Below are positions 12,620-32,808 of a stretch of 32,808 bases of DNA, one piece after another. The notes beneath the pieces are model-generated. The model had not been told where the DNA came from. It was given only the letters and a program-made list of their open reading frames with translations, and made no database searches. The position numbers and the translations under genes are program-made. The stretch comes from a virus (taxonomy: Duplodnaviria > Caudoviricetes), in the IMG/VR virus record IMGVR_UViG_3300012682_000681, positions 1-32,808 of that record. One strand, written 5' to 3'. Within the stretch, counting starts at the first letter, position 1, and each line of letters begins with the position of its first letter.

Positions 12620-12814
12620 CTACTCGGGGCGGGGCCGGCGGCGGGTGACCGTGTCCAGGGACTGGTACGTCACCGTCTGGCCGTCGGAGAAGAGCACCTC
12701 AAGGCTCAGGCCGTTCCTCTTCACGACGACCACTTCGAGTTCTTCTTCAGCCCTGACGACGACGTCGCCTGGCTTCAGGTTGCGGGCCCGGCAGGTCGCC
12801 GTGACCATGCTCAT
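12620..12814 (-). CDS. Small beta-barrel-like hypothetical protein
   Basis: ARNLKPGDVVV...; ATGA overlap with the annealase stop. Confidence 0.6.
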   Translation of the reverse strand: MSMVTATCRARNLKPGDVVVRAEEELEVVVVKRNGLSLEVLFSDGQTVTYQSLDTVTRRRPRPE

Positions 12815-13626: not shown

Positions 13627-13633
13627 CTCGGTC

Positions 13634-13654
13634 ACGATGCCAGGCGGCGTGACA
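13634..13654 (-). promoter_or_regulatory. TGTCAC-N9-CATCGT promoter-like motif
   Basis: -10-like hexamer 7 nt before GTG 13626; same geometry as the two other copies. Confidence 0.5.
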
Positions 13655-13681
13655 AGACCGTGCTGCCGGACCTGCCGACAG

Positions 13682-13687
13682 TAGCCT
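13682..13687 (+). promoter_or_regulatory. -10 box TAGCCT, probable leaderless promoter for the tape measure gene
   Basis: TANNNT 6 nt before GTG 13694; no SD. Confidence 0.5.
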
Positions 13688-13693
13688 GCATCC

Positions 13694-16600: not shown

Positions 16601-17488
16601 GTGGGCTTCGAGTTCTTCGCCGGGGTCATCGGGTTCCTCGTCGACCTGATGCAGTTCCTTTGGATCGTGGTCTTCCAGCCGTTCGCCGCCTTCCTGGTGG
16701 ACGTGTTCAAGGTCGCGGTCGACGTGGTCAAGCTGGCCTGGGAAGGACTCAAGCTCCAGTTCGACGTCGTCAAGGACGTGCTCGGCTTCCTCTACGACAA
16801 CGTGATCCGCCCGGTAGCGGACTTCCTCGCCGACCGGTTCCGCAACGCCGTCGACGGGCTGAAACTGGCCTGGGAGGGGCTGAAGATCGTGTTCGACGTC
16901 GTCAAGGACGCGCTCGGCTTCCTCTACGACAACATCATCCGCCCGGTCGCCGACTTTCTCGCCGACCGGTTCACCAACGCCGTCGACGGTGCCAAGCTCG
17001 CCTTCGACGGCTTCAAGATCATCATCGGTTTCGTGCGCGACCGCTTCGACGAGGTGGTGGACGTCATCCGTCGGGTCATCGACTTCCTGGGTCGCCTGAA
17101 GGACAAGGCAGCCGACGCCCTCGGGCCGTTGGGGGACGTGCTCGGCTTCGCCGGAAACGCCCTCGAAAGCCTGCCCGGTTTCGGGAGTGGCAGGGAGCAC
17201 GGCGGGCCCGTCAGGAAGGGCGAGTCGTACGTCGTCGGGGAGCGCCGGGCGGAGCTGTTCGTCCCGAAGCAGGACGGGACGATCCTGCCGTTCGTGCCAT
17301 CCCTGGCAAAGGGGAGGGCAGTGTCGGGTGGGGCGGCGGGCCCGGGGGTGCTCATTGAGAAGCTGGTGGTGCAGGTGTCCGGGGTGACGGGAGGGGCGGC
17401 ATACGAGGCGGGCCGTGCGGCCGGCGACGGCGTGGCCGACGCCCTCGAGGCCCGCCGGTTGAGCGTGCTCGCTAGGGTTGCCGGCTGA
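13694..17488 (+). CDS. Tail tape measure protein
   Basis: 1264 aa; tape-measure domain (LQDFAAATPFEFDQL..QSQTLNGLMSTFKD), long amphipathic repeats, C-terminal GGPV..YVVGERRAELFVP. Confidence 0.95.
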   Translation: MGESVGGIEAEVRPVLSPGFARDLENQLRRAANGASGGFRPLLDAASDASRRIANAFRPVDVDTSAATRKLGGVGDTAAATGRRIGTAFLPPAIDTTAATRSLQGLGQEGQQSASKVVGAFRDLSARLRGADGRLVAEGAFDGLVADSRQAADSVERNLKGGFRAVEADARASGRRIGNSLDQGVGDGAGGLASRMAGIGRLAFGALAAIGVTAGVGALTKFGLEAAGSFEQVKVAFEGQMGDLAVPFIKRLQDFAAATPFEFDQLAGAAQRLLAVGFTADQVADQTNGVLAKIGGVAAALGQSGESVNSVVTALGRIKGQGRATIGDFELITNALPGFNAVAAVAKNMGITTEEAFKQLTSGGIKAGPVIDGVLAGMAAFPGAAGAMAAQSQTLNGLMSTFKDTLKITVTEGFQPLVGAVKDSLPPLTESVGKSLDSIAPAIASLATSVLPVLVDLVGQVGPALGQVIGAIGPILGPILGTLGTVLTPLLEGLAAGAKVFGEAFGDALSEIGPELGALAGAFGQLIGAFGGVAAELIGPFVTVAGAIADAITPVIVELTPIIKELAAVFGEAFQTLGPVIRDVGVTLGAVFGDTVKILGPVVVDVFSKILEAIVPLLPLLLPLVGVLAGAFLQVFSALLSPIAELVVALVDGLAPVLPELVTLFVAVATALTDQVVAALLAVLPPFVTLLTALVPVITLFAEIIADIPVSVIIALVDAFILFKTVGVALGILSSLIGLLPLLGAVLGAVLSPVGLVIAAVVALAAAGYLIYRNWDTIAAFFDRTWESIKRIFASAVEFLKPVLEPIGTAIGTIVDVFGRVVGAVTPVVLAIGTGLVAAFQGALTVIGVVKDVLLFLFDNVIRPLAGFLIDVFAVALTGLKLAFDGLLIVFGFVRDVLGFLFETIIKPLAGFLVDVFVVALAGLKLAFDGLLIVFGFVKDVLLFLFDNVIKPLAAFFIDVLSVAIDVVKVGFEFFAGVIGFLVDLMQFLWIVVFQPFAAFLVDVFKVAVDVVKLAWEGLKLQFDVVKDVLGFLYDNVIRPVADFLADRFRNAVDGLKLAWEGLKIVFDVVKDALGFLYDNIIRPVADFLADRFTNAVDGAKLAFDGFKIIIGFVRDRFDEVVDVIRRVIDFLGRLKDKAADALGPLGDVLGFAGNALESLPGFGSGREHGGPVRKGESYVVGERRAELFVPKQDGTILPFVPSLAKGRAVSGGAAGPGVLIEKLVVQVSGVTGGAAYEAGRAAGDGVADALEARRLSVLARVAG
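16241..17060 (+). repeat. 132-bp (44-aa) tandem repeats within the tape measure gene
   Basis: VKDVL.FL.DN.I.P unit recurs at 16241, 16373, 16505, 16769 and 16901, with a degenerate copy at 16637. Confidence 0.8.
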
Positions 17489-19989
17489 TGGTCGACTACA
17501 ACCCGAACCAGCCGTGGCTGTCCGGGTTGGAACAGCGGTCGAGGGGGCGGGCCGGCCGGCGTGTCGGGTCGCCGGCCCAGCAGCAGATCGTCCGGTGGCG
17601 GGCCAGCGACAGCGCGCAGGTCGGCACCGTCGGCGTCTACCTGGACCAGGGTTCGGCGCCGCTGGTGGAGGCCGGGCCGCAGGCCATCTACAATGGCGGG
17701 GTCGGCCCCGAGGCCTACCCGGCCGGCAACCCCCGGGCCGGACTGCTGGTCGACGTGACCACCAGAGCCAACGAGCTGGTCACCGCCGGCCTCCAGGCCG
17801 ACACCTACACGGTCAACGGTGTTGTCGTCCGCCCGACAGCCACCGGCTGGTACCGCGGGCCGACACAGGTGGGCGACCCGGCCGGGGTTGACGACATCGT
17901 GAACGACAACCTGGACCGCTACGCCTTCACCTCGGCCACCAAGCGGTGCGCCATGGGAGTGCTGTTCACCTCGAACGGCTTCCCAACCGGCCGCCACGTG
18001 GTCGGGGTCGAGTTTACCATCCGGTCCTGCGGGCCGATCCACGCATCCGTCGACCACCTGCAGGGGACGACGTGGATCGGTGAGCTGAACCCGATGGCCT
18101 TCGACTCGCCGCTGCCGGCACCCGGCGAGCTGCCAACCGAGTTCGTCTACCACACCTTCCGGATCGGGGAGATGTTCGCCTCCCGCACACTGGGCGGGGC
18201 GGGCGGCCAAGACAGGACGGACACGATGAGGGCGTGGACGCGTGTCGACGTCAACGAGTTCGACATGACCGTCGGCCCTCAGCGGCGGCTCAGCCTGACC
18301 ACCCACAAGTTGGGGGCCGCGATCGCCTACGTGTCGATGACCGTCTACTCGATCCCCGAGCGGAGGGTGGCCACCGGCATCCTGGTCCCGAACGTGACCG
18401 CACCCGGGTTCTTTTCGGCGACGCTGCGGGAGCCCGGCGGTGCCATCTGGACCAAGGTCCAAGGGGTCGACTATTCGACCGTCGTCCGCCAGCCTGTGGC
18501 CGGCAACACCGGGCTGGGCAAGGCGACGGCCACCATCCGCCGGCTGCCCCGTCCGGTGGTCCCAATCCCGTTCCACGAGTCGGTGGCGGTGGCCACCACA
18601 GACAGCGGCGGGTCAGGGCAGCCCACCTCGGCGGCGGCACCTGACGCGGCGATCATCCCGTTCCTGGTGGTCGACGCCTTCGGGCCCGTGCTCGCTGAGA
18701 CCATGCCGTATGTGGAGGCGGCGACCGTTACATGCGGAGCCGGGATGACGTTCCCGGTTCGAGGCACCGGGCAGACCCTGTCTGTCGCGTACCTGCTGCT
18801 CGCTGACGAGTTCGCTCCGGCCACCTTCGAGAGCCTGGCGTGGAAGTTGACGGACGGCCCGGGTGGGACAGGGGCGTTCGTGGAGGGTTCGATCAGTCGG
18901 GCTGACATCGACGGGAGCCCGCAGGTTGCCGTCGAACCTTTCGCGCTGGGGGGTGTGACGAAGGTGCTGACGTGGCGCCGGGTTCGTCTCGACTTGGGGG
19001 CCGGTCGGACGATCGCGAACGGGTCGATCGGTTCCCTGATAATCAGCTCCACCACTCCGACGGCGTTCGGGTCCACCGAACGGGTGCTCCTCGGGAGTCT
19101 TCGGGCGTCCTCGGGGCAGCTGGCGCAGTCGTGGCTGGGAACCGACGGCGTCGACTTCGCTGAGGACGCCCAGGCTGTCGTCGCCGTCAAGCCACCGCTG
19201 GTGACCGGGGTGACGGCCACGGTCACGGCGACCTCCTACGGGGGCGCAGCGGCGAAGTACGTGGCTGTCAGCTTCACGCCGCCCGCGTCGGTGCCGGCCG
19301 GGTTCGCCTACTACGAGGTGCAGCGGTCCGACCCGCGCACCGAGGGGGCGCCGATCGCCCGGCTGACCACCGTCACCGACTCAACATTCGCGGACCATGA
19401 AGCCAGGTACGGGGAGGTGTCCACCTACCGGGTGCGAGCGGTCGACGTGTACGGCACCGAGGGCGACTGGTCGAACCCTTCACTAGTGGTTCTGCCAGCG
19501 CTCACCGGCAGCCCGCTGACTTTCACCACAAACGAGGCGCCCACCCTGTCCGTGGTGGCCGAGGACACCTACACGGGCACCCCAACGCGAGAGTACGGCT
19601 TCCCCGAGGCAGCCGAGCTCGTCACCAGGCTGGTGTACGGGCGGGACCTGCCGGTGGCCTTCCGGCCAGCGGTGAAACGGGGTGCCACCTTCACGCGTCG
19701 CCTGAAAGTGGCATCCGGCCGGTGCCCACCGGTCTCGCCGGTCGGGCCCGGCCGGATGGACCGACTGCGAGACCTGGCCGTCGCCGACGTTTCCTACGTG
19801 TGCGTGCGAGACACAGCCGGCAACCGGTTCTTCGGGGCGATCACCATCCCCGACGGGCAGGTCACGAACTTCCCACGACTGCATGAGGCTACCGTTGGAT
19901 TCGTGGAGACCTTCGCCATGCCGTCCACCCCGGGCGCCCCGTACGGCTACGACGGGTCGTGCCAGCAGTACGGCGACGGAGGCTACTGA
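17488..19989 (+). CDS. Minor tail protein with a fibronectin-III-like domain
   Basis: TGATG-coupled to the tape measure gene; YYEVQRSD..FADHEARYG..TYRVRAVD..GDWS FnIII pattern; ends PYGYDGSCQQYGDGGY. Confidence 0.75.
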   Translation: MVDYNPNQPWLSGLEQRSRGRAGRRVGSPAQQQIVRWRASDSAQVGTVGVYLDQGSAPLVEAGPQAIYNGGVGPEAYPAGNPRAGLLVDVTTRANELVTAGLQADTYTVNGVVVRPTATGWYRGPTQVGDPAGVDDIVNDNLDRYAFTSATKRCAMGVLFTSNGFPTGRHVVGVEFTIRSCGPIHASVDHLQGTTWIGELNPMAFDSPLPAPGELPTEFVYHTFRIGEMFASRTLGGAGGQDRTDTMRAWTRVDVNEFDMTVGPQRRLSLTTHKLGAAIAYVSMTVYSIPERRVATGILVPNVTAPGFFSATLREPGGAIWTKVQGVDYSTVVRQPVAGNTGLGKATATIRRLPRPVVPIPFHESVAVATTDSGGSGQPTSAAAPDAAIIPFLVVDAFGPVLAETMPYVEAATVTCGAGMTFPVRGTGQTLSVAYLLLADEFAPATFESLAWKLTDGPGGTGAFVEGSISRADIDGSPQVAVEPFALGGVTKVLTWRRVRLDLGAGRTIANGSIGSLIISSTTPTAFGSTERVLLGSLRASSGQLAQSWLGTDGVDFAEDAQAVVAVKPPLVTGVTATVTATSYGGAAAKYVAVSFTPPASVPAGFAYYEVQRSDPRTEGAPIARLTTVTDSTFADHEARYGEVSTYRVRAVDVYGTEGDWSNPSLVVLPALTGSPLTFTTNEAPTLSVVAEDTYTGTPTREYGFPEAAELVTRLVYGRDLPVAFRPAVKRGATFTRRLKVASGRCPPVSPVGPGRMDRLRDLAVADVSYVCVRDTAGNRFFGAITIPDGQVTNFPRLHEATVGFVETFAMPSTPGAPYGYDGSCQQYGDGGY

Positions 19990-20131
19990 TGCCGAGCACC
20001 AACCTCCCGGTCAACGTTGACGCCTCCTACCCGGATGATGCGGCGAACCCTGGGCGGAAGCTGCACCAGCAGCACCACGACGCCGTCCACGCCCTCACCA
20101 ACGCCGGCGTGGCGTCGAGCGCAGAGCTGGC
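19976..20131 (+). repeat. Left arm of a 156-bp imperfect inverted repeat
   Basis: Colinear with the reverse complement of 30280-30435; first 24 bp identical (ACGGAGGCTACTGATGCCGAGCAC). Confidence 0.85.
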
Positions 20132-21743
20132 CGCGGCGGGGGCCGGAGCAGCGACCCTGCTCCGTGGGTCCGGCATCGACGAGACAGGCGTGGCCGACTC
20201 AACGGCGGCCATTCAGACGATCGTGACCAACGCGGCCGGCCCCGTCCACGGGGTGCCCGGCGCCACGTACAAGCTGGGCACGGTGAACCTGAAGAACGGG
20301 TCGGACGTGCGGGGCAACGGTGCCTCCCTGGTGTGCACGGTCGCGACGCCCGCTGTCGCAGGTCAGGGGGGCGGGGCGTTCGTGTCCACCGGGCGGACCA
20401 ACGTGGCGGTGAGCGGCTGGACAGCCTCGGGTAACACTGGCACCTCACTGCTCAAGATGGTTGGCGGTTCCGTCGTCGACTGCTTGCGCAATACGGTCAC
20501 CGACATGCAGGTCATCCAGGTGAACAGCGCGAACGGCAACATCTACGTTGGTTCGGCTGAGACCGAGAACGTCGACATCCTCGTGCAAGGCAACCGGGGG
20601 ACGGCGCCGAACAGTTCGGTTGGTACCGCCGGCATCTTCTTGCTCTACTGCTCCGACGTTCGGGTCGTCGACAACAAGCTGACCGGTTACACGTCGGGCG
20701 TGCAGTATTGGGGCGGGGACGCCAACACTCAGGGGGCGATAGCGAACGCCCGGAAGTGCAAGCGGATCTGGATGAGCAGGAACCGGGCGACGGGCGCCTA
20801 CGGCGGCGGGCTGTGGGGGTCGATGGGCGAGGACATCCTGATCGTTGACAACTACGTGCAGGGCAACGGCGACATCGGCATCGACTTCGAGGGCAGCTTC
20901 AACTGCCGGGCCAGCCGCAACACCGTGTTCGACTCGTTCGTAGCCAACTTCGGCACGTTCTTCATTTGCCGGGACGTCGTCTTCGACAACAACACGAGCA
21001 TCGCCACCTCCCCCTCGACGTGCGCCGCCCTGTTCATCATCAAGAACGCCACGTCCGACGGATCGAAGACGACAGGCAACGGCACCATCACAATCTCGAA
21101 CAACACCGCCCACTACAAGACAGGGGTCAGCTTCGCGGTTTTCTCAGAGGTATGCGAGCATCTGATCGTCACCGGGAACAAGTTCCGCAACGGGAAGGTG
21201 TGGAACGCGATCGCGAACACGCACAACATCACGATCACAGGGAACGTGATGCGGTGGGACGCTGCGGCCAGCGCCGCGTTCACTGCGATCGAGGTTGGTG
21301 GGAACACCCAGCAGGGCGACGGGTTCGCCCCGGTGACGACGATCAGCGACAACCGGATGATCTCCGAGGCGATCCACCCGGCAGGGTCACGTGGCATCTA
21401 CTCCAACCAGGCGGACGTGAACAGCAACCCGGTGCTGGAGATCCACCGGAACCACATCTACGGGTTCCCGGCCGACATCGTCTCGCAGTGGGGTGGCACG
21501 AACGTCGGGACCGCCGCGGTCGTGCGGATCAGCAACAACGTGATCTTCAACGGGATCACGTCGACGAACACGGGGGCGGCGAACGCTCAGAACCTGCAGT
21601 CGTGGGGCAACCGGAAGAGCTTCACCGGCGGACCGATCGGGGCGTCGCTGACCGTGACGGGCAGCAGGGGGGCGAACGCCGCCCTCGCCAGTCTCCTCAC
21701 CCACCTGGCGACCCTCGGCCTCATCGGCGACAGCAGCACCTGA
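19989..21743 (+). CDS. Fibre/tailspike 1, right-handed beta-helix (pectate-lyase-like)
   Basis: GIDETGVADSTAAIQ start motif, many xxxNxx repeats, C-terminal ALASLLTHLATLGLI helix. Confidence 0.8.
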   Translation: MPSTNLPVNVDASYPDDAANPGRKLHQQHHDAVHALTNAGVASSAELAAAGAGAATLLRGSGIDETGVADSTAAIQTIVTNAAGPVHGVPGATYKLGTVNLKNGSDVRGNGASLVCTVATPAVAGQGGGAFVSTGRTNVAVSGWTASGNTGTSLLKMVGGSVVDCLRNTVTDMQVIQVNSANGNIYVGSAETENVDILVQGNRGTAPNSSVGTAGIFLLYCSDVRVVDNKLTGYTSGVQYWGGDANTQGAIANARKCKRIWMSRNRATGAYGGGLWGSMGEDILIVDNYVQGNGDIGIDFEGSFNCRASRNTVFDSFVANFGTFFICRDVVFDNNTSIATSPSTCAALFIIKNATSDGSKTTGNGTITISNNTAHYKTGVSFAVFSEVCEHLIVTGNKFRNGKVWNAIANTHNITITGNVMRWDAAASAAFTAIEVGGNTQQGDGFAPVTTISDNRMISEAIHPAGSRGIYSNQADVNSNPVLEIHRNHIYGFPADIVSQWGGTNVGTAAVVRISNNVIFNGITSTNTGAANAQNLQSWGNRKSFTGGPIGASLTVTGSRGANAALASLLTHLATLGLIGDSST

Positions 21744-21745
21744 CC

Positions 21746-22783
21746 TTGACCACTACCGACCTGCTCGACCTGACCGCACCGTCCCGGGCGTCCACGTTCC
21801 GACTCGACGTCCTCGACGCCGACCGAACCCCGATCGGCACCCTGCAAGCCTCGGAGGACCAGCCGCCGACCGTCGCCAACGACGTCAGCCGCACCATCAA
21901 GCGGACGCTCACCGGCCTCCAGCTGCCCGCAGCCGAACTCGGCGACCTGAACCCGTTCACCGACCTGATCCGCCCCTCCATGGTCCTCGAGGACGGCACG
22001 GTGTGGTCGCTAGGCGTGTTCGCCTTCGCCGACCTGTCCCGCACCCCCGACACCCCCGGCCGGGGCTACGACGCCACGCTCGTCGACCTGCTGTCCATCC
22101 TCGACCGGGAGACCGAGACGGGCGTCACCCTGGCGAAAGGGGACGACATCTCGGCGTTCCTTGTCGCTCTCACCGCCGACGCCAACGTGCTCGCCGTTGC
22201 CATCCCCGCCAGGGCCGGCACGGCCGGCGCCGACCTGTCCTGGCCAGCCGGCACATCGCGGCTCGCCATCGCCACAGCGGCCAGCCGGCTCTGCGGGTTC
22301 GTGGACCCCTACTGCGACAACGACGGCACCCTCACCATGGGCCCCCTGAGGGAGGCCGGCGCTCTCCCCGACGTCACCTACGGGGTGGGAGGGCGCGTTT
22401 TCCACTCCACGATCGTCGAGTCGGACGACCTGCTCTCCGCACCGAACCGCTACATCGTCGTCGACACTGCCCCAACCGCTGCGCCGATCGTCGTCGTCTA
22501 CGACCTCCCCGTCGAACGTCCAAACTCGGCCGCCAAGCGTGGGTTCGTGATCCCGACACGGATCGAGGTCCAGGGCATAGCCAACGTGGACGCGGCACTG
22601 GAGTTGGCCAGGGCGGCGGCTGACGTGGCCGGCTACCGCCACCTCAGCTTCGCCGGGGCACCCGACCCGCGGCACGACACCTACTCGACGGTGGAGTTCA
22701 ACGGCGTCGTCTGGCGGGAGCAGGCCTGGTCCATGACTCTGGCCGACGGCACGGACATGACCCACCATCTGCGTTCGCCGTGA
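21746..22783 (+). CDS. Minor tail (hub/Tal-like) protein
   Basis: Probable TTG start at 21746; IKRTLTGL..LGVFAFAD..SWPAGTSRL..DPYCDNDG..PDPRHDTY..WSMTL. Confidence 0.7.
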   Translation: MTTTDLLDLTAPSRASTFRLDVLDADRTPIGTLQASEDQPPTVANDVSRTIKRTLTGLQLPAAELGDLNPFTDLIRPSMVLEDGTVWSLGVFAFADLSRTPDTPGRGYDATLVDLLSILDRETETGVTLAKGDDISAFLVALTADANVLAVAIPARAGTAGADLSWPAGTSRLAIATAASRLCGFVDPYCDNDGTLTMGPLREAGALPDVTYGVGGRVFHSTIVESDDLLSAPNRYIVVDTAPTAAPIVVVYDLPVERPNSAAKRGFVIPTRIEVQGIANVDAALELARAAADVAGYRHLSFAGAPDPRHDTYSTVEFNGVVWREQAWSMTLADGTDMTHHLRSP

Positions 22784-23457
22784 CCCTCGAGCAGAAGGAG
22801 GACGGGACCTGGGCCGACTACGGTACCCACGAAGAGTGGTTGGCCCAGAAGGACGCTGACACCCCGTACAACCGGTGGCTGGCCGGGGTGATCGCACAGA
22901 CCAGGGCGAACCGGGAAGCTCGGGAGGCCCGGGAACAGCAGGCACAGGTAAACGTCGTCCGGCAGGTAACAGCGAGGGCGGTAGCACGATCCACCACAGG
23001 GTTCGCGCTCCTCCCGGCCACCATCGTCGGCGTCTATGAGGACGCCTCAGCCAAGGTACGGATCGACGGGGACGGGGCGGTCCTGAAGGCGTCTGTCCTG
23101 CCGCCGCACTTCGCTCCGCCGGCGGGGCAGCGGGTCATGGTGGCCCGCAGCGGCGACGTGCTCTACGTGGTCGGGGTGACGCCCGGCGACGTAGCCCCTG
23201 ACCGGGTGACGGGCAGGGCAACCGTCACGTTCGCTGGCCTCAACTACGTCGAGGGCTCTGTGGCTTGGGGCACCCCGTTCGAGGCCAACCCGGTCATCCC
23301 TGCCCCCGGCGTGGAGGGGGCTCTCGGCGGTAACTTCGTCGTCACCCTGCACGACGTGGCCGTCGCCGGGTTTGACTTCACCGTCCGCACGTTGGACGGT
23401 GGGACGCACACGGGCCCGGTGACCGTACACTGGGTGGCGTTCGCCCCAGGCGTCTGA
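22780..23457 (+). CDS. Minor tail protein (OB-fold-like plus beta-sandwich)
   Basis: GTGA overlap; PATIVG..VRIDGD..PPAGQRVMV; C-terminal VHWVAF. Confidence 0.6.
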   Translation: MTLEQKEDGTWADYGTHEEWLAQKDADTPYNRWLAGVIAQTRANREAREAREQQAQVNVVRQVTARAVARSTTGFALLPATIVGVYEDASAKVRIDGDGAVLKASVLPPHFAPPAGQRVMVARSGDVLYVVGVTPGDVAPDRVTGRATVTFAGLNYVEGSVAWGTPFEANPVIPAPGVEGALGGNFVVTLHDVAVAGFDFTVRTLDGGTHTGPVTVHWVAFAPGV

Positions 23458-23462
23458 GCCTC

Positions 23463-23975
23463 CTACGGGCAGGCGCAGCCGGTGATCTCGAAGGTCACGG
23501 TGACCCGCCCCCCGACGGCACCGCCTTCCGGGCCCACCGGGACCCAGGCGCCCACGACCGCGGGCCGCTCGCCGGCGGCGACTGCGCATTCGAGTGCCCG
23601 GCGGAGGACGACGGCGTCGGTGAGCACCGTCTTCGCCGACGCGGTGATCTGCTCGACGGCCGGCGGTCCACCCTTCGGTGCCGTCGCCGCGCAGCGGAGC
23701 ACGAGCACCTCGTACAGGCCCAGCAGGTCGGCGGGGCCGGGGGACCTACCGGAGCCGTAGAGCGGCGGTCTCCCCTCATTCGGGAACTCCGCTGCTGGGG
23801 CGAGGCGCAGGAGCTGCACGGACAGCTGGCTGGTGCAGTCGAAGGCAGCCTCACCTTCGGCGACGAACCGCCGGAGCGGCGCACCGACTGGGGTGCCGGC
23901 CAGGGCGGTGGAGGCCACGGCCAGAAGATCCTCGGCCAGGTCGAAGGCGACCGTGACCGCCCCGTCCGTCATCAT
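23463..23975 (-). CDS. Tail terminator / head-tail joining-like protein
   Basis: AAFDC..QLSV..YEVLVLRCA..WVPVGPEGGAVGG pattern seen in actinophage connector genes; ATGA overlap. Confidence 0.6.
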   Translation of the reverse strand: MMTDGAVTVAFDLAEDLLAVASTALAGTPVGAPLRRFVAEGEAAFDCTSQLSVQLLRLAPAAEFPNEGRPPLYGSGRSPGPADLLGLYEVLVLRCAATAPKGGPPAVEQITASAKTVLTDAVVLRRALECAVAAGERPAVVGAWVPVGPEGGAVGGRVTVTFEITGCACP

Positions 23976-24550
23976 CGACTGGCCAGCAGGATCTGGAAGC
24001 CGTCGTCGTTGGTCACGTGCTCGATCACGGTCCAACCAGCCTGCTCCATGAGCGCCCGGTAGCCCACCTGGTCGAAGGCCCAAAGATGGTGCTCGTAGTG
24101 CGACTCGGCGGTTTCGTTCGCCGGGGAGCTGGCCACCAGCCATCTGGCGTGCTCGGCGATGCGGGCCACGAAGCCGTGCGGGTCGACCAGGTGCTCGAGC
24201 ACCTCGGTGGCCACGGCCACCTCACCCCATTCGATGTCGCCGGCCACAGCATCGCCGAGCCGGACGTCGACACCCCGGACGGCGCCGCCTTCCACGTTCG
24301 ACGGCTGCAGGTCGTAACCCCACGCCGGCAGGCGCGGGTCGAGGAGGCTGAGCAGCCCGCCGTCCCCGCAGCCGACGTCGACGACTGAGTCGGCGCCGAG
24401 GGTTCGGGCCCGGTGCACCATCGACGCGGTCGTGGCCAGCCGGGCGATGTGCGGGTACTCCTCGAGGTGCGGGGCCCGGTCCCGTTCGGCGTACCAGGCG
24501 GCCGTTGAGCAATCCGGCACGGTGCCTTCAGGGAACAGGCGCGCCTCCAT
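23972..24550 (-). CDS. Class I SAM-dependent methyltransferase
   Basis: VVDVGCGDGGLL, ATEVLEHLVDP. Confidence 0.88.
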   Translation of the reverse strand: MEARLFPEGTVPDCSTAAWYAERDRAPHLEEYPHIARLATTASMVHRARTLGADSVVDVGCGDGGLLSLLDPRLPAWGYDLQPSNVEGGAVRGVDVRLGDAVAGDIEWGEVAVATEVLEHLVDPHGFVARIAEHARWLVASSPANETAESHYEHHLWAFDQVGYRALMEQAGWTVIEHVTNDDGFQILLASR

Positions 24551-24581
24551 CGGACGACGATGCTAGCCAGCGGCCAGCCGG

Positions 24582-25196
24582 TCAGGACTCCCACCGGTCG
24601 GGCCTTCCACTGGTGTTGCCGAACCCGGCGAGGCTGTGGTGTCGCCACACCCAGGTCCGCTCGGGCAGGTGAACGAACCGGCCGCCGGCCCGGGCCACGG
24701 CCTGCCAGCAGCCCCAGTCCTCGCACTCAGAGTGCGGCCAGCGGTCCGAGCCCGGCGTGGGGAACCCGCCGACCGCGGACAGCACGTCGCGCCGCACGAG
24801 CAGCGTCACCGGGATCCAGTTGCGGTGCTCGAGCTCGGCGGCAACGAACGGCTGCCCCAGCATGCCCAGCGGGTCGAGATCGTTGCGCAGGTCGCCGTGA
24901 ACCTGCAGGTCGAACCACGGGTACACCACGTCGGCGCCGGTCTCCTCGGCGGTGACCATCAGCCGTTCGAGGTGCTCCGGCTTCAGGAGGTCGTCGTCGT
25001 CGAGGAACGCCACGTAGTCGGTGTCCAGTGCCCGCCACGCCCGGTTCCGGCAGCCGGCGGCCCCTTCCCGCAGATGGTCGACCTGGACGCTGATGGCGTC
25101 CGGGGAGCGGGTCTGAGCGCAGACGCTGGCCAGCGCCTCGGCCAGCAGCACCGTTCTCGGCGGGATCGAAGCAATCGCGACCCCTACGGAGGTCAC
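24582..25196 (-). CDS. Glycosyltransferase family 2 (GT-A)
   Basis: ALASVCAQT..GAAGCRNRA..YVAFLDDDD..CEDWGCW; GTG start at 25196. Confidence 0.88.
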   Translation of the reverse strand: MTSVGVAIASIPPRTVLLAEALASVCAQTRSPDAISVQVDHLREGAAGCRNRAWRALDTDYVAFLDDDDLLKPEHLERLMVTAEETGADVVYPWFDLQVHGDLRNDLDPLGMLGQPFVAAELEHRNWIPVTLLVRRDVLSAVGGFPTPGSDRWPHSECEDWGCWQAVARAGGRFVHLPERTWVWRHHSLAGFGNTSGRPDRWES

Positions 25197-25354
25197 GCCC
25201 AGCGGACCTTCAGGATGACGCCGCCGTGGACGGCCTGCTCGGCGACAGCCTCCGCTTTGGTGGTCCTCACCATGGTCCTGCCGTCCGGCAGGCGGACCTC
25301 GTAGCGGGTCGAACCATTCGACGACCCGGTGGCCCTTCCGCCCCCTCAGCCCAC
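25193..25354 (-). CDS. 53-aa small protein with in-frame UGA at codon 3 (candidate selenoprotein)
   Basis: GTG GGC TGA GGG GGC GGA..: MG*GGGRATGSSNGSTRYEVRLPDGRTMVRTTKAEAVAEQAVHGGVILKVRWA. Its stop overlaps the GT2 start (GTGA); TATGGT -10 at 25393-25398. Confidence 0.6.
25305..25328 (-). promoter_or_regulatory. SECIS-like hairpin downstream of the in-frame UGA
   Basis: CGGG-(UCG)-UCGAA-UGG-UUCGA-CCCG; loop begins 30 nt after the UGA. Confidence 0.45.
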
Positions 25355-25453
25355 CCCAACCACCACCGATCCTGCTCGTCGAACCTGGAAGCACCATACC
25401 GGTGGGGCTGACGGCGTAGCATCGCCCACCGTGACGACGGTCAGGAGCTCAGC

Positions 25454-26308
25454 GTGTCGTTCGGCGTAGGAGGCGCCCCGATCGGGGCCCCCGGGTTCAC
25501 GGTCCCCGCCCACAGCCTCGTCGGGGTCGCGGCGACACCGGTGGCGCCGGCCCGGTGGGAGACGGGCGTGTCGTTCAGCCCGGAGACATGCGAGCAGGTG
25601 TGGGTCACAGCCGTCGGCTGCGACCCGGTCACCCAGCCGACACCGGCGAACAACGACCCGGTCGTCAACGTCGACTCCTTCCAGATCACCACCCTCTTCG
25701 AGTGCCGCAGCACCGGCCACGAGGTCGTCGGCTACCAGCGTCGGGCCATGGACGCCATCGACGCCCTCACCCCCCGGGCGGTAGAAGGCCAGTTCTGGAC
25801 GGGCGCCCAAGGGGCCAGCGACCTGGCGTTGCGCAAGACGCCGGCGACGGCGTTCGACGGCTGCAAGGGCGTCATCGGAGCGGCCGCGGTCGCCCCAGCC
25901 CGGGCTCTCGGCGCGCTGATCCAGGCCATCTCCGACTGCAGCTCCGGTGGCCGTGGGGCGATCCACGCCCGCCCTGAGGTGGTCAGCCTGTGGACCGACA
26001 CGGGCAGCGTCGTCGAGAAGGGCGGCCAGCTGGTCACCCTCGTCGGCCAGCACCACGTCGTCCCCGGCGTCGGCTACCCGGGCACCGGGCCGAACGGCCA
26101 CGCCTCGGCGGCCACCACCAACTGGGCCTACGCCACCTCGGGGACGCCTCAGATGATCCTCGGGCCCGCGTCGTCGAACCCGGGCACCTTCAACGAGGCC
26201 TTCGACCGGCGGATCAACATGGTCCGCTTCCAAGGCCAGCGCGAGGCGGCCGTCTGGTGGGACGGCTGCCTGTCGGCCGCAATCCGCGTCGACCTGCCGG
26301 CCATCTGA
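25454..26308 (+). CDS. Second capsid-fold protein (capsid pentamer-like)
   Basis: RWETGVSF..C..FQITTLFEC..AVEGQFWTG..GAIHA..VVPGVGYPG..WAYAT..FDRRIN..REAAVWWDGC resembles the gene that usually follows this major capsid type; AGGAG RBS. Confidence 0.6.
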   Translation: MSFGVGGAPIGAPGFTVPAHSLVGVAATPVAPARWETGVSFSPETCEQVWVTAVGCDPVTQPTPANNDPVVNVDSFQITTLFECRSTGHEVVGYQRRAMDAIDALTPRAVEGQFWTGAQGASDLALRKTPATAFDGCKGVIGAAAVAPARALGALIQAISDCSSGGRGAIHARPEVVSLWTDTGSVVEKGGQLVTLVGQHHVVPGVGYPGTGPNGHASAATTNWAYATSGTPQMILGPASSNPGTFNEAFDRRINMVRFQGQREAAVWWDGCLSAAIRVDLPAI

Positions 26309-26310
26309 CC

Positions 26311-27339
26311 TCAGGCTGACGTCCAGGCGTCCAGCCAGCGGTGCACGTTGCCTTCGATCGTCCACCGTGCCGCCACCTCCGACCCGGCAGCGGCCAGCTC
26401 CTGCCTGTAGTCGAGGTCGAGGAGCAGGCGCTTCAGGTGCCGGTGCCAGTCCCGTGGGCGGCGGGCGATCAGCCCGAGCCCTTCCTCGTGGAGGCGCAGG
26501 TTGTCGGGGGTCGGCGACATGACCGGCACCGACCCGCTCCCGGCGGCCTCGATCGCCTTCAAACCGGATTTCGAGAGGTTGAACGCGGTGTCGGCCAACG
26601 GCACGATCGTGACGTCGATCCGACTGAGGGCGGCGAAGTAGCCGGTCAGGTCGAGCATCCCCGTCGAGGAGAACAGCGGGCTCACGGTGGCGTCGGAGCG
26701 GGCTTTGAAGCCGAGCGGCCCGGCGGCGTCCCCCGGGCCCACCTGGAGGAACGAGGCGCCCGGCGTGGCAGCCACCACGCCGGCGACGTTGCCCCTGGTG
26801 ACCTGCAGGTCGTTCGGGTGGGTGCCGGCCAGGCCCGGCCAGCCGACCGTCATGCCCGTGCCCCGTGGCCGGCCGCAGAAGCCGGCGGGCAGGCAGTTCG
26901 GGATCACCACGGTCCGCTTGCCGTATCTGGTGGCCAGCTGGGGCGTCGTGACGGTGACCAGGTCGGCGGCTGCGCAGGCGGCCTTGGCATGCCGCCAGTT
27001 CGCCGTCGGGGAGCTCAGCGGGTGGACGGACCCCCAGGCCACGTTGGCCCGGTCGACCCGTTCGAGGTCGTCGTCCATGTCGACGACAACCTTGACCCCT
27101 TGGGCTTGGACTGCCCGGATCACCTCGAGCATCACCTCACCCGACGGCCTTTGCAGGACCAGCACGTCGCAGTCGACGGGCACCTCCCGGATCCGCCCGC
27201 CGGGGCCCCGGACGACCGGCAGGTCGCCTTCGAGCACCCGAACGTCGGCGCCGACGGCATTCGCAAGCTGGGCGGGCCAGAACAGGCGCAGGTGACCGCA
27301 GGCGCCGTCATCGGCCGGCCAGACAAGGATCCGGGTCAC
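26311..27339 (-). CDS. Glycosyltransferase, GT-B fold (GT4-like)
   Basis: ACGHLRL..VLVLQRP..VVDMDDDL..ADLVTVTTPQL..TVGWPG..IVPLADTAFNLSKSGLKAIE. Confidence 0.85.
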   Translation of the reverse strand: MTRILVWPADDGACGHLRLFWPAQLANAVGADVRVLEGDLPVVRGPGGRIREVPVDCDVLVLQRPSGEVMLEVIRAVQAQGVKVVVDMDDDLERVDRANVAWGSVHPLSSPTANWRHAKAACAAADLVTVTTPQLATRYGKRTVVIPNCLPAGFCGRPRGTGMTVGWPGLAGTHPNDLQVTRGNVAGVVAATPGASFLQVGPGDAAGPLGFKARSDATVSPLFSSTGMLDLTGYFAALSRIDVTIVPLADTAFNLSKSGLKAIEAAGSGSVPVMSPTPDNLRLHEEGLGLIARRPRDWHRHLKRLLLDLDYRQELAAAGSEVAARWTIEGNVHRWLDAWTSA

Positions 27340-27340
27340 C

Positions 27341-28234
27341 TCAGGCTGCACCGGCCACAAAGGCGCAGACGATGTAAGCGGCATGCCGGTCAAGGTTCAT
27401 CCGGTCCCGGTCGTAGCGCGTGGTCGTGCGCGGGTCGGCGTGCCTGGCGGCGACCTGGACGTCGCGGAGCGGCACCCCGGCGTCGAGGGCGGCGGTGATG
27501 AAGCTGTGCCTCAGGCTGTGCGGGCCGACCTTCTTGGTGATCCCGGCCCGCTTCGCTGTAGCCCTGACCATGCGACCGGCAGTGAACCGGTCGAGGCGCC
27601 GGCCGTCCCAGGCGAACAGCGGCCCCTCGAACCGGTCGCCGACGACGAGGTCGATGGCTCTGGCCGTGCGGGGCGCCAGCGGCACGGTGGCCGGCTTGGC
27701 TCCCTTCCCGATGATCCGCAGCGTCCGGTGGCCCCGCTCGGAGCCGAGAGCCTCCACGTCAGCCCCGCAGGCCTCGGAGACCCGAAGGCCATTCAGGAGG
27801 CAGCCAAGAGCGTGGTGCAGGGGGCTGAGGACGGCGGCGTGGGTGATGAAGGCGCCGAGCTCCATCCGGTCGAGGCCGAGCGTCGACGACTCCTGGGAGG
27901 ACTTGGGGCGGCGGACGAAGCGTGCCGGGCTCTTCGCCAAGATGTCCTCGGCTTCGCAGTAGCGGTAGAAGCCGGCGACCGTGGAGAGGCGGCGGCCGAT
28001 GGTGGCGCGGGCGTACCCATCGGCCTCCATCTGCCGGCCGAACATCTCGACGTGGACCCGCTTCACCTCGAGAACGACTAGGCCGTTCTTCTCGCAGTGA
28101 GTGAACCAGGCGCGCAGGTCGATGCGGTAGCCGGTGAGCGTGTGGCCGCTGTAGCCCGCTAGGTATCCGCCGGCGACGAGGAGGGCCTCGTCGAGCGGGG
28201 TCACAAGCTGTGCGTGGGTAGCGTCGGTGGACAA
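27341..28234 (-). CDS. Tyrosine recombinase/integrase (XerC-like)
   Basis: Catalytic R (GLRVSE), K (GKG), HSLRH, H (ARHAD) and Y (TTRYD) all present; TTG start with AGGAGG. Confidence 0.93.
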   Translation of the reverse strand: MSTDATHAQLVTPLDEALLVAGGYLAGYSGHTLTGYRIDLRAWFTHCEKNGLVVLEVKRVHVEMFGRQMEADGYARATIGRRLSTVAGFYRYCEAEDILAKSPARFVRRPKSSQESSTLGLDRMELGAFITHAAVLSPLHHALGCLLNGLRVSEACGADVEALGSERGHRTLRIIGKGAKPATVPLAPRTARAIDLVVGDRFEGPLFAWDGRRLDRFTAGRMVRATAKRAGITKKVGPHSLRHSFITAALDAGVPLRDVQVAARHADPRTTTRYDRDRMNLDRHAAYIVCAFVAGAA

Positions 28235-28297
28235 GTGCTGACCTCCTGCTAGGTCGGTGCCTAGGCCTCCGTCGGTGCTGGTAACACCGGCGGAGGC
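28235..28297 (+). ncRNA. Candidate structured RNA antisense to the recombinase leader
   Basis: Stems 28235-44/28251-60 and 28265-77/28285-97 pair fully only on the + strand, using four G-U pairs. Confidence 0.4.
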
Positions 28298-28316
28298 TGC
28301 CCCGATTGGAAGCCTC

Positions 28317-28337
28317 AGGCTACGCGGCTAGGTGACA
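28317..28337 (-). promoter_or_regulatory. TGTCAC-N9-TAGCCT promoter-like motif upstream of the recombinase
   Basis: Consensus TANNNT with TTGTCAC upstream; third copy of the motif. Confidence 0.55.
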
Positions 28338-28370
28338 AGCCGTCTCCGGCTCGCCGCTCTCATCCAGACG

Positions 28371-30422
28371 TTATGTGGCGATCAGCCCGTGCGTGCGGAG
28401 CCGAGCGAGGAGGGCGTTGAGTGCTGCACGCGCCTCGGTATCTACGGTCGCCCCGCCGCTTGGGTCCGCCACGGCGGCGCCTCTAGCCCCGACTACCGAC
28501 GTCCCTTGAACCTTGAGGCCCGTCCCGGCGGTAGCGATGTCGACATTACCGCTGTACGACGTGATACCACCGATCACCTCGATCGGGTTCTGCATGAACA
28601 AGGCAACGGCCTGGGGCGAACTCCACACGAGGCGCCCGTCAGCAATGACCTGCACATCCCAGTTGGCGGTGGCGAGGGCGTTCTGGAACTGAACCCTCGA
28701 CCCGGCGAGAAGCTGGAGCAACAGGTCACTCAGCACGACCCCTGCCGTGGAGGTCTTGCCGACGGCGAGCTGCTCGAAGCGCAGACCGCCGCCCGGCCAC
28801 ATGATGCCATTACTGCTGGTGTCGCCTAGGAAAATCTCGGGTTCGGTCAGCGGGCCGAGTTCCAACACCTTGAAGAAGAAGTAGTTGCTGGACGACCCAG
28901 CGTCGAAGATGACAGCCGGGAGGGTGTCGGTTTCGCGGTAAACGCCGTAGAAGTGGTTGCACACATAACGGACACGGGCCATGGCTGTGAGGTTGCCGGC
29001 GAAGTGGGGGGCGATGTAGGTGTTGCCCAAGAACGATTCGTCGTTGACGCCGTAGCGGGCGTTCCCCGAGGCGTCGGGGACACCGTCGAAGGTGCACTGG
29101 TTGGCGTCGGTGCCCATTGCGTGGAAGCCGTCCTCGTTGTTGTACGAGGCGACGTGGGTAATCAGGCAGTTGTTGGCGTTGGTGGAGACGACGGCGTCCT
29201 CATCTACGTTCCCGCTGAACACGAACAGGCCAGCCCCACCGAACCCTTCGATAACGCAGTCTTCGGTCGTCATGCCGTTGGCTTGCATCCGTACGCCGTT
29301 GTTGTAGACCGCCGCTTGTCCTGCCGCTGCCGCAGATGCCACGTTAGCGGCGACCTTGGCGAAGGTGAACGTCGTTGCTGTCGGGATGCTGGTGACGTAA
29401 CGGTAACCGTCGAAGGGTGCGGCGAGCCCAGCCACCTCCACCAAGTGACCAACAACGAACCCGTGGGCGGTGTCAGTGGTCAGGGTCGCGACGTTGGCGG
29501 TCAAGGCTTTGTTTGTGATAGCGAGCGTCATCTTCGCTGCCCCGGCCGCTGCCGCAGATGCCACGTTAGCGGCGACCTTGGCGAAGGTGAACGTCGTTGC
29601 TGTCGGAGTGCTGCCGATAGTGTGGTAGCCGTTGAAAGTGGCGTCGACCCCGACGACGGCCACCAAGCGACCAACAACGAACCCGTGGGCGGCGGCGGTG
29701 GTCAGGGTCGCGACGTTGGCGGTCAAGGCCTTGTTGGTGACGGCCACCCTTGACTCAGTGTTCTTGATCTTGAACCCACGGATAATACTGCCAGCGCCCC
29801 GGCCCAGCACCCCGTTTTGCACGATGAAGCCCGACACGCCAGGGTCGCAGTTGAGGGTGGTCCCTTGGCCCGGCTGGAAGCCCCGGCCGGTACCTTCAAT
29901 CTGAACACACTTGCCGCTCCAAACCACATCGGTCTTGAAACGGTAGGCGGGAGCGGTCATGCGGATGCGGCCACCGGATACCGGAAGGGCGGCGATGGCG
30001 GCCATGACGGTCAGGGCGTCGTCGGTTCCTGCTCCGCCAGTGGGGCCGGGCTCGATGTCGATCCAGGGGCGGGGGCCGCTGAACAACTTGTTGCCGTTGA
30101 TCGTTGTGTTGCCGTTGATCGGCACATAGGTGGCGTTCAGTGCGTCGGTCCAGTTGCTAGCCGTGTAGGTGGCGCCGGAGGTGAACGCGACGTTGGCCGA
30201 GACGATCTGGCCGGACGGGTTGAGCACCTGGTCGCCCGCGGCGTAGGCGGTGATCGGCTTCCACTTCGTCACGCGGTCCGCCAGCTCCGCCGACGACGCG
30301 ACGCCGGCGTTCGTGAGCGCGTGGACCGCGTCATGATGCTGCTGGTGCAGCTTCCGGCTCGGGTCGGCCGGGTCATCCGGGTACGACCCGTCGATGTCAA
30401 CCGGCAGGTTCGTGCTCGGCAT
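28371..30422 (-). CDS. Fibre/tailspike 2: shared N-terminal anchor, CBM5/12-like module, beta-helix with two inserted repeat domains
   Basis: First 48 aa match fibre 1 at 42 positions; WKPITAYAAGDQV; GTDDALTVMAAIAAL; C-terminal ALNALLARLRTHGLI. Confidence 0.8.
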   Translation of the reverse strand: MPSTNLPVDIDGSYPDDPADPSRKLHQQHHDAVHALTNAGVASSAELADRVTKWKPITAYAAGDQVLNPSGQIVSANVAFTSGATYTASNWTDALNATYVPINGNTTINGNKLFSGPRPWIDIEPGPTGGAGTDDALTVMAAIAALPVSGGRIRMTAPAYRFKTDVVWSGKCVQIEGTGRGFQPGQGTTLNCDPGVSGFIVQNGVLGRGAGSIIRGFKIKNTESRVAVTNKALTANVATLTTAAAHGFVVGRLVAVVGVDATFNGYHTIGSTPTATTFTFAKVAANVASAAAAGAAKMTLAITNKALTANVATLTTDTAHGFVVGHLVEVAGLAAPFDGYRYVTSIPTATTFTFAKVAANVASAAAAGQAAVYNNGVRMQANGMTTEDCVIEGFGGAGLFVFSGNVDEDAVVSTNANNCLITHVASYNNEDGFHAMGTDANQCTFDGVPDASGNARYGVNDESFLGNTYIAPHFAGNLTAMARVRYVCNHFYGVYRETDTLPAVIFDAGSSSNYFFFKVLELGPLTEPEIFLGDTSSNGIMWPGGGLRFEQLAVGKTSTAGVVLSDLLLQLLAGSRVQFQNALATANWDVQVIADGRLVWSSPQAVALFMQNPIEVIGGITSYSGNVDIATAGTGLKVQGTSVVGARGAAVADPSGGATVDTEARAALNALLARLRTHGLIAT
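29323..29745 (-). repeat. 222-bp (74-aa) tandem duplication in fibre 2
   Basis: TNKALTANVATLTT..AHGFVVG..PTATTFTFAKVAANVASAAAAG occurs twice; 62 bp identical at 29323-29384 and 29545-29606. Confidence 0.9.
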
Positions 30423-30435
30423 CAGTAGCCTCCGT
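30280..30435 (-). repeat. Right arm of the 156-bp imperfect inverted repeat
   Basis: 30412-30435 is the exact reverse complement of 19976-19999. Confidence 0.85.
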
Positions 30436-31192
30436 ACTTGGTGATCGTGGCGCCGGGAGCGGTCGGCCCGGCAGTGGCAACCAGGCTGTCATCGTCGTCG
30501 GCCCGGAAGATTCTGGCGGCCCGGTGCAGGCGGGCCGGGTTGACGGCGGCAAGCCACAGGTCGATCGACGTGATCCCCGTCTTGCCTTCCTTCAGGAAGT
30601 CGGCCGGGTCAAGAACGGTCATCGTCAGCCCCTGCCGGGTGATCGTCGTCAGCCGGGCCGGGAGGCCGCAGTCGTCGGGCGCGGCGACCGCCTTGTAGAA
30701 CTCGCAGGCCAGCTGCGCGGCGGCCAGCAGGCCCGCGGCGGGGACAGGCTGACCCCAGGTGATCGTCACCGACCAGGTGCCCGCCTCGGTGTCCGGCAGG
30801 TCCAGGTTCTGCGTGGCCGGCCATGACCCGCCGAGGCGGGCCAGCCAGCGGCGCGACTCAAGCCGGTACTCCGAGGCGGGCACCACCGCGCCGTCGACCT
30901 TGACCTCGCCGACGGACACCACCGGGTTGGGCAGCAGCAGCCGCCGACGGAGCCGGTGACCGCACGACGTTGAGCAGCGGCAGGTGGCCAGCGGCGCCCA
31001 GGCCCGGTCGACGATCGGGGTGCAGACGTCCGCGCCAGAGCAGGGCCGGAACGTGGCGGTGCACGACCCGAACCTGCGGCCCGACAGGGCCCACAGCACT
31101 TCGGTGGCAGCCTCGAGGTGTTCTTCGAGGCCACCGGCGGGGGCGGCGCAGTCGGTGAGGTCGGCCGGCCACGGGCCGCAGAGCCTGGTCAT
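30422..31192 (-). CDS. Head-to-tail adaptor
   Basis: ATEVLWALSGRRFG.C..RPC..VKVDG..WPATQNL..LACEF..C.LP.R..ITRQGL..GKTG..IDLWLAAVNP. Confidence 0.8.
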   Translation of the reverse strand: MTRLCGPWPADLTDCAAPAGGLEEHLEAATEVLWALSGRRFGSCTATFRPCSGADVCTPIVDRAWAPLATCRCSTSCGHRLRRRLLLPNPVVSVGEVKVDGAVVPASEYRLESRRWLARLGGSWPATQNLDLPDTEAGTWSVTITWGQPVPAAGLLAAAQLACEFYKAVAAPDDCGLPARLTTITRQGLTMTVLDPADFLKEGKTGITSIDLWLAAVNPARLHRAARIFRADDDDSLVATAGPTAPGATITKYGGY

Positions 31193-31266
31193 GGCCCGTA
31201 GCCTCCTGAGTATCCGGCTGCATAGCCGGCGGGCACGGGGCCGGTCCCGGGCCCGCCTCCTAGAAA
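31189..31266 (-). other. Putative -1 frameshift extension of the major tail protein
   Basis: T-TTC-TAG at the gene end; the -1 frame reads FLGGGPGTGPVPAGYAAGYSGGYGP* and ends in an ATGA overlap with the adaptor start; hairpin at 31229-31256. Confidence 0.55.
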
Positions 31267-31907
31267 GCCAGGTACCCGTTGGAGTCGGGCGGCGGGATGG
31301 TGGACGTGCGGAACACGGCCTGGTGCTCCTTCGGTCCGATCGGGCCGCCGAGGATGACGCCGGCCCGGGGGCCGAGACCGAAGCTGGGGTTGACAGACGA
31401 CTCGCCTTCGATCTTGAACGTGGCGGTCGCCAACTCGATCGTCGGGTTGCTGAGCACCGTGTTCTTCACCAGCGGCCACACCCACAGGAGGAACTCCTCG
31501 GTGCCGCCGACGACACACGCCTGCCCGGGGATCCGGGACCACACCTCGAGGATGAAGTTGTTGGCCCCCATCCCGTCGCCGACAGCCCAGCCGACCTGGT
31601 CGGGGCCGTTGCTGATCACCCGGACACCGGACGTCAGCTCGGCGAGAGCCGGGTGGACCTCGCCGAAGTTGACGGCGATCGTCTGGTACTTCAGCCGCTT
31701 CTTGTCCCGGTCGTTGACGATGAACTCGCCGTCAGCCGACTTCAGCAGGAACTCTTCGCCGTCCTCGAACTCCTGGCCGAGTTCGACGGAGATGAACCCG
31801 CGGGACACCGCCGACCCGGACGGGCCGGAGACGGCGACGCCGCAGGCGTCGGCCCGGGTGACCCGTGCGGCCACCCCCTTGATGCTCCTAACAGCCTTCG
31901 AGGCCAT
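31260..31907 (-). CDS. Major tail (tube) protein
   Basis: ARVTRADACG..SRGFISVEL..FEDGEEF..KSADG..FILEVWS; lies between the capsid and adaptor genes; GAGGGAG RBS. Confidence 0.8.
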   Translation of the reverse strand: MASKAVRSIKGVAARVTRADACGVAVSGPSGSAVSRGFISVELGQEFEDGEEFLLKSADGEFIVNDRDKKRLKYQTIAVNFGEVHPALAELTSGVRVISNGPDQVGWAVGDGMGANNFILEVWSRIPGQACVVGGTEEFLLWVWPLVKNTVLSNPTIELATATFKIEGESSVNPSFGLGPRAGVILGGPIGPKEHQAVFRTSTIPPPDSNGYLAF

Positions 31908-31934
31908 GTGCGCTCCCTCCTCGTTCGGTCGGCG

Positions 31935-32808
31935 TTACGGGCAGGTGCGGGGCGTGACGGCGGCTGGGCCGGCGCCGGACGGGCAGACGGTGGAGGTGAG
32001 GCGGATCGACTCGCACCCGAGCTTCAGGACGCCGATCCACTCCTCCATGAACAGCTGCAGGTCGTTGGTCCGGTTCAGCGTCGAGTCGCGAACCAGGCCG
32101 ACGTCGAGCGTGCCCCCGTCCATCCGCCCGAACGTGCCGGGGGCGTGCAGGTAGCTGGTGACCAGGGTCGGCCACTTGTTCAGCGCTCCGGCAGCCTGCG
32201 GCGTGTCGAACTTCTGGCCCCGGCCGGTGGCCGAGTCGTTGTACCAGACGGCCACGATGTTCCGGTCCCGCAGGTAGGCGGTGGCCTGGGCGTCGGTGAT
32301 GTTGAACACCTCCGGCGAGCCGAACTGGTTCATGGCGATGTCGAGCTTCAGCAGCTCGATCGACCAGTCGGGGGCTTCCATGACGATCGGGGCGGTGCGG
32401 CGCATCCCGGCACGCTTCCGGTAGGCGACCGCTGCGGTCGTCCAGTCGTAGATCAGGTTCCGCGACGCCCCGTACGGCCCGGTGCTGCTGACCGCGGTCG
32501 AGTTCGAGTCGATGTAGTCGAGGTAGAACACCTCCTTGCGGGAGGCGAGGGCCACGGCGACGTCCTCGAGGAACGCGGCGACCTGCTCGGGGAAGGTCCG
32601 GTAGTGCAGGTTGCCGAAGTAGATGCACTGGGAGATCGGGTTCACGACGGCGTCGAGGATCGGCGGGCAGTCGACCCGGGCGCAGTTCTTCCACGTGGCC
32701 TGGTTGGCCGGGTCGATGGCCGACTCGGCCTTCATGTCGATGGCAGCCGCAGCGTCCGCCTTCATGAAGTCGCAGGCGCCGCCGATGTACCGGACCTGGC
32801 CCCGGGGC
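31935..32808 (-). CDS. Major capsid protein, 5' end beyond the window
   Basis: Frame open to the edge (PRGQVRYI..); K.CARVDCP..CIYFGN..FPEQV..GTF..DGGTLDVGLVRDSTLNRTNDLQLFMEEW. Confidence 0.88.
   Translation of the reverse strand, partial: PRGQVRYIGGACDFMKADAAAAIDMKAESAIDPANQATWKNCARVDCPPILDAVVNPISQCIYFGNLHYRTFPEQVAAFLEDVAVALASRKEVFYLDYIDSNSTAVSSTGPYGASRNLIYDWTTAAVAYRKRAGMRRTAPIVMEAPDWSIELLKLDIAMNQFGSPEVFNITDAQATAYLRDRNIVAVWYNDSATGRGQKFDTPQAAGALNKWPTLVTSYLHAPGTFGRMDGGTLDVGLVRDSTLNRTNDLQLFMEEWIGVLKLGCESIRLTSTVCPSGAGPAAVTPRTCP

Follow-up and report, generated by a model that had tools for sequence, protein, structure and literature searches.

The question raised by this locus is whether the UGA at codon 3 of a small open reading frame (ORF) is decoded as selenocysteine (Sec) or is a stop within a damaged gene. 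The window, by which we mean the whole 32,808-nt stretch of DNA that was analyzed, is a 32.8-kb virus record that is estimated to be 46% complete, has a GC content of ~70%, and carries tail, head, integrase, and glycosyltransferase genes. A preliminary description of this DNA had proposed that the small ORF encodes a selenoprotein. If true, the phage would encode a selenoprotein belonging to a family in which no Sec form has been recorded and heading a glycosyltransferase-methyltransferase cassette, and with the UGA recoded the phage would depend on the selenium machinery of its host for a small, non-enzymatic protein. In a literature search that took in few subscription papers, neither the phrase "phage-encoded selenoprotein" nor the term "DUF7196" was found, and the word "phage" does not occur in the accessible portions of a 2026 review (PMC13188914).

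The small ORF (25193..25354, minus strand; 53 codons with the UGA counted as sense) consists of a GTG start (25354-25352), GGC, the TGA (25348-25346), 50 open codons, and a terminal TGA (25195-25193) that overlaps the GTG start (25196-25194) of the gene for a GT2-family glycosyltransferase of 204 aa (24582..25196, minus strand). A methyltransferase gene (23972..24550, minus strand) lies downstream of GT2, and the upstream neighbor of the small ORF is a divergent capsid-pentamer-type gene (phrog_779; 25454..26308, plus strand), so labeled on the basis of the gene order in its relatives. The first in-frame ATG, GTG, or TTG after the UGA is the ATG at 25273, which agrees with the preliminary description that no start codon lies between the UGA and the YEVRLPDG segment. 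The same description had presented the ORF as one missed by gene calling; the frame, with its stop overlapping GT2, is real, but a 26-aa call from this internal ATG (25193..25273, minus strand) was already on record as the database's own gene call (P0012).

Codon usage was scored with a table built from the other genes of the window; with this table, the 5th percentile was 8 for true 50-codon windows (n = 116) and the 95th percentile was 10.5 for wrong frames (n = 580). The small frame had a GC3 of 0.90 and a codon score of +14.9 bits, whereas the GT2 frame, which is open over the same stretch, had a GC3 of 0.60 and scored -27, which identifies the small frame as coding. An N-terminal extension of GT2 from an ATG at 25397 (a 271-aa ORF) was rejected based on that GC3 of 0.60, its negative codon score, and its sequence not being on record. 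TGA terminates 12 of the 16 ORFs in the window and is therefore a normal stop in this phage; for this reason, and because the window has no tRNA, genome-wide reassignment of UGA was also rejected.

By sequence comparison, the small ORF belongs to the DUF7196/phrog_2069 family. The read-through protein matched Pfam PF23826 at 23.5 bits (E 6e-5), under the 27-bit cut-off, and the part after the UGA alone scored 16.7 bits. In addition, there was a match to phrog_2069 (E 1e-4), a family profile built without the window sequence scored the small ORF at 32 bits, and tblastn related it to gp16 of mycobacteriophage StAugustine. The best identity of the small ORF to any relative was 46% over most of its length. 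StAugustine gp16 and Rosebush gp14 resemble it in their C-terminal body (Y-x-x-x-x-PDG ... EA-x-AEQ-x-x-HGG), their size, and their Gly-rich N-terminus. However, DUF7196 relatives start with ATG and M-x-C-x-C, whereas the small ORF has neither Cys, and both StAugustine gp16 and Rosebush gp14 directly precede the capsid hexamer gene, whereas the small ORF precedes GT2, between that gene and the divergent pentamer-type gene.

A family homolog in a prophage of Desertimonas flava (G775, L284:16342-16539) is likewise displaced from the head module and coupled stop to start, but it is intact, has an adjacent Cys-Cys pair coded TGC TGC, and has 34% identity. The gene appears to be dispensable in its lineage, as suggested by the lack of a detectable copy in three of the four closest near-complete phage relatives (G002-G004) and by the divergent and displaced nature of the copy in G775. 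The same prophage encodes a 186-aa protein (L282:10622-11182) whose C-terminal segment weakly resembles DUF7196 (10 bits), a hint that the domain also occurs fused. Single-protein searches with the small ORF found no close relatives in the protein database, viral contigs, or plasmids. The family profile identified no members in 401 genomes of the likely host class, and PF23826 gave one weak match in 401 genomes of the phylum, which was judged false from its translation. Relatives of GT2 were found at 20 loci, none with the small ORF upstream among the matches listed, and searches with the pentamer gene gave no match.

The predicted model of the read-through protein (pLDDT 77) consists of an unstructured tail (residues 1-15) and a small beta-beta-alpha-beta body. 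No solved relative was identified by sequence, the best fold match had a Z of 4.2 (not significant), and a viral fold search had no match at E<=0.001, with DUF7196 proteins ranked 6-7. Judging from gene position and the predicted model, intact members of the family are probably small head-module accessories in which a flexible tail bearing the Cys pair is attached to the beta-beta-alpha-beta body. No function for the DUF7196 family is given in the accessible portions of PMC7150772 or PMC11965321.

Among 113 database matches, the 104 at E<=1e-3 were classified as 93 CxC, one CxxC, two with a CC-type start, and eight N-truncated calls, with no single-Cys form; two Cys were present in 96/96 full-length matches. 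The eight entries without Cys look like short start calls, as was shown for one of them (P0111, by comparison with L284). P0008, a 46-aa N-truncated family call from a contig of 191,959 bp, likely also has a short start, a hidden UGA being possible. As protein databases cannot show UGA forms, the DNA of homolog loci carries more weight, and in 10/10 loci read as DNA (L021, L082, L084, L086, L087, L102, L113, L116, L126, and L284, two of which are near-identical) there were two Cys coded TGC or TGT. L116 was considered as a fusion without Cys and this was rejected, the gene being a stand-alone one with CxC.

A 98-member profile (alignment gC at model positions 4-5) placed the UGA (25346..25348, minus strand) at the second Cys of M-x-C-x-C and not at the first, where small alignments had put it. 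The preliminary description had placed the UGA at a Cys of a family beginning MGC or MxCxC; the position is indeed a conserved Cys and the gene is a DUF7196 gene, but the residue is the second of the pair and the first is also missing. The bases leading into the ORF are TTG, GGG, TG, GGC, TGA, GGG, GGC, and GGA, compared to M-G-C-G-C-G-G-G in the family, such that the first Cys codon is one base short. We interpret the TTG, GGG, two-base TG, and GGC at 25349..25359 (minus strand), within which the in-frame GTG lies, as a probable remnant of an M-G-C-G start. Of 292 comparable GTGGS sites in the window, three have this context upstream, the site of the small ORF being one of them. Profile scores were 44.8 bits with both sites as Cys, 33.4 bits with Cys in the GTG reading, and 26.1 bits for the part after the UGA.

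Together, these data lead us to favor, with some reservation, the interpretation that the small ORF is a recently inactivated copy of a DUF7196-family gene whose N-terminal Cys pair has been destroyed. The ancestor would have read M-G-C-G-C-G-G-G-R; the first Cys may have been lost in a local event (a one-base deletion in its codon, or slippage within the GC-rich repeat), and the second Cys codon would have become TGA through one C-to-A substitution. Ribosomes would then stop at codon 3 and produce at most a 26-residue restart product from the ATG at 25273, and translation of GT2, by means of either an SD-like site of its own or coupling to the internal frame, would not require selenium. The suggestion in the preliminary description that glycosyltransferase translation could be selenium-dependent is not supported, since GT2 has its own SD-like GAAGGT (25211-25206, minus strand) 9 nt upstream of its start and the internal-ATG frame shares the coupled stop. 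Of the -10 box that had been proposed, the TATGGT hexamer is present (25393..25398, minus strand) and is a possible -10 element, but no matching -35 was found and a sigma-70 scan of 24500-26500 identified no full promoter.

Several observations count against inactivation. Downstream of the UGA the frame is undecayed (GC3 0.90), meaning that any inactivation must be recent, and a change from Cys to TGA is only one of the 15 possible single-base nonsense changes in the small ORF. The window neighbors of the small ORF aligned to their relatives without internal stops (one extension upstream of the tape-measure match contains two), indicating that the phage is not in general decay. In addition, the rare codons AAT (6/197 Asn) and GGT (70/639 Gly) fall exactly in the loop of the hairpin discussed below, and SelB is present in 87/151 genomes of the likely host class.

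Another explanation, which we consider doubtful but worth weighing, is that the gene of the phage is intact, with Cys-x-Cys, and that the contig has a local cluster of assembly or sequencing errors in a G-rich stretch. Consistent with this, both defects are within ~6 nt of a G-rich run, the remainder of the gene and its neighbors look intact, and only a single contig is known to carry the site. However, a 93,198-bp ENA/Logan contig is the recorded source of the GT2, pentamer, methyltransferase, adaptor, and tail proteins of the same phage, whereas no intact small-ORF protein is on record, as determined by exact look-ups, a word search that produced no candidate of 29-93 aa, and a profile search that returned the 26-aa piece alone. 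This comparison favors a real lesion indirectly, because the reads may be common to those assemblies and because this gene can be overlooked or shortened by gene callers (e.g., P0111).

Decoding of the UGA as Sec is, in our opinion, improbable. It would require that an Acidimicrobiia phage had turned the Cys pair of a head-module protein into a single Sec (M-G-U-G-G-G, read from the GTG) or, should the missing base be an error, into Cys-x-Sec (C-x-U), with host SelB and tRNA-Sec acting via a bulged hairpin with a UGG loop. The UGA being at an invariant Cys position, the rare codons in the hairpin loop, and the undecayed frame are all in keeping with such decoding. The sole genome match in the capsid alignment was the Desertimonas flava prophage (61%), and this one match makes Acidimicrobiia, to which we take D. 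flava to belong, the likely host class. Sec use is common in Acidimicrobiia: SelB was above cut-off in 87/151 genomes of the class and SelD was present in 55/81, and the D. flava host has tRNA-Sec and SelD, together with a SelB-like gene that falls just short of its cut-off. The likely host class could therefore support Sec decoding.

No second copy of the UGA was found. A UGA-specific scan of viral sequences for M-G/A-UGA forms, which is blind to GTG starts and C-x-UGA forms, returned 59 loci and no family members; its control, with TGY in place of TGA, matched 7/9 known loci. Viral scans for the family motifs identified three members in 6 loci and four in 44, all with two Cys, and none of 54 loci with the pattern TGA plus YEV-x-x-PDG was a family member. 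A metagenome scan of 17/64 parts returned the window's own contig alone. The expectation in the preliminary description that homologs would have Cys at the UGA site was borne out, but the independent UGA copies it had looked to did not emerge. The absence of a second copy is not strong evidence, as no close relative was found (best 46%) and a small UGA lineage could have been missed.

The hairpin with the UGG loop exists as it had been described, with a 6-bp stem (25308..25322, minus strand; loop 25316-25314) and 29 nt between the UGA and the loop, but its fold is at chance level. The hairpin formally satisfies the bSECIS consensus (a loop of 3-9 nt, G at loop position 1-2, a spacing of 16-37 nt, a stem of at least 4 bp, and <= -7.5 kcal/mol), as applied by a custom script after the legend to Fig. 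2 in the accessible portion of PMC13188914 and not by bSECISearch itself. However, the same rules were passed by 34 of the 55 Cys codons in the window and by 158 of 250 random codons of the phage, and a stricter G[GU] rule by 22/55 and 99/250, respectively; depending on the measure, 22-63% of the phage's codons have an equal candidate hairpin. SECIS-like folds after Cys codons are likewise reported in the accessible portion of PMC13582414.

The UGG hairpin is also a minor conformer. A competing 7-bp stem (25305..25328, minus strand) is dominant, with a pair probability of ~0.85 and a loop without G[GU] at positions 1-2, and the pair probability of the UGG hairpin was 0.12 or 0.04, depending on the sequence context. 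Fold z-scores of the segment were -0.5 to +0.3. The upper stem of the UGG hairpin (-4.4 kcal/mol) was matched by 1207/5607 window codons and by 4/9 Cys homolog genes, and was weaker than 17/19 GC-rich true elements. Such a hairpin does not exceed chance expectation. If the gene is damaged, as we favor, the locus would be an example of GC-rich DNA yielding rule-passing SECIS elements by chance (~60% of codons).

Sec genes of the likely host class served as a control set. A hairpin probability of at least 0.5 was obtained for 22/25 Sec selW, 10/13 Sec selD, and 1/1 fdh genes, and for 0/17 Cys selD genes (rows dropped from the control: two "selW Cys" rows that were out-of-frame matches; L173 and L175 were missed by the motif). 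The window site, at 0.04, compares with medians of 0.97 and 0.87 in the host-class SECIS elements, and its value was equalled by 94/400 random window codons. The selD and SelW-like genes of Acidimicrobiia (L149-L169 and L174-L199) have well-conserved SECIS hairpins, with loops ~32 and 17 nt after the UGA. They resemble the small ORF in having a UGA at a Cys-equivalent site and a hairpin with a G[GU] loop 16-37 nt downstream, and the GGU of the small ORF, 30 nt after the UGA, is close to the ~32 nt of the host-class selD elements. However, in the Acidimicrobiia genes the UGA recurs across many genomes (25/26 SelW-like matches) and the hairpins are dominant, whereas the UGA of the small ORF is single and its hairpin a minor fold. 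Rfam detected no SECIS at the site, a result that is uninformative because it also missed the real Acidimicrobiia elements at the two loci tested.

Section 6 of PMC13188914, in its accessible portion, names two filters for false-positive Sec calls, and the case for Sec here lacks both, as no UGA-bearing homolog was found and the hairpin was not above background. A start with a single chalcogen is, moreover, without precedent in the 96 full-length members, and the site is in the low-confidence, unstructured tail (residues 1-15) and not in a redox fold. We regard the insertion of Sec by host SelB, as the preliminary description proposed, as improbable because of the missing UGA-bearing homolog, the background-level hairpin, and the loss of the partner Cys. 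Least credible of all is that the gene remains functional despite losing its Cys tail, through restart from the ATG at 25273 or low-level leaky read-through of the UGA (e.g., as Trp) with coupling to GT2 kept, for although the internal frame retains the helix, the HGG motif (18.7 bits), and the coupled stop, strands 1 and 2 of the predicted fold would be missing from a restart product, Trp at the site gained nothing over X (26.4 bits each), and the Cys-less database entries are those that look like short start calls.

Several other features of the window were observed. The pentamer-type gene is flanked by two glycosyltransferase genes and the methyltransferase gene (23972-27393), possibly a cassette for glycosylation of the virion or host surface. 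The order of the structural genes is scrambled (12811-32765): the pentamer-type gene is on the plus strand among minus-strand head genes, apart from the hexamer gene that it follows in relatives, the plus-strand tail genes converge on the GT2 cassette near 23460, and the tape-measure gene is divergent from a Rad52-like gene. A 156-nt inverted repeat with 83% complementarity (19976-20131 and 30280-30435) lies at the 5' ends of two tail-associated genes that are 10 kb apart, and a tyrosine recombinase gene (27341-28234) lies between the copies, making the repeat a possible inversion substrate. Four copies of a 25-nt repeat are located within or beside an HTH_36 gene (8581-8715); they are iteron-like and may represent a replication origin. 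Finally, a 683-aa gene has two internal direct copies of 206 nt (29313-29740) that are 84% alike.
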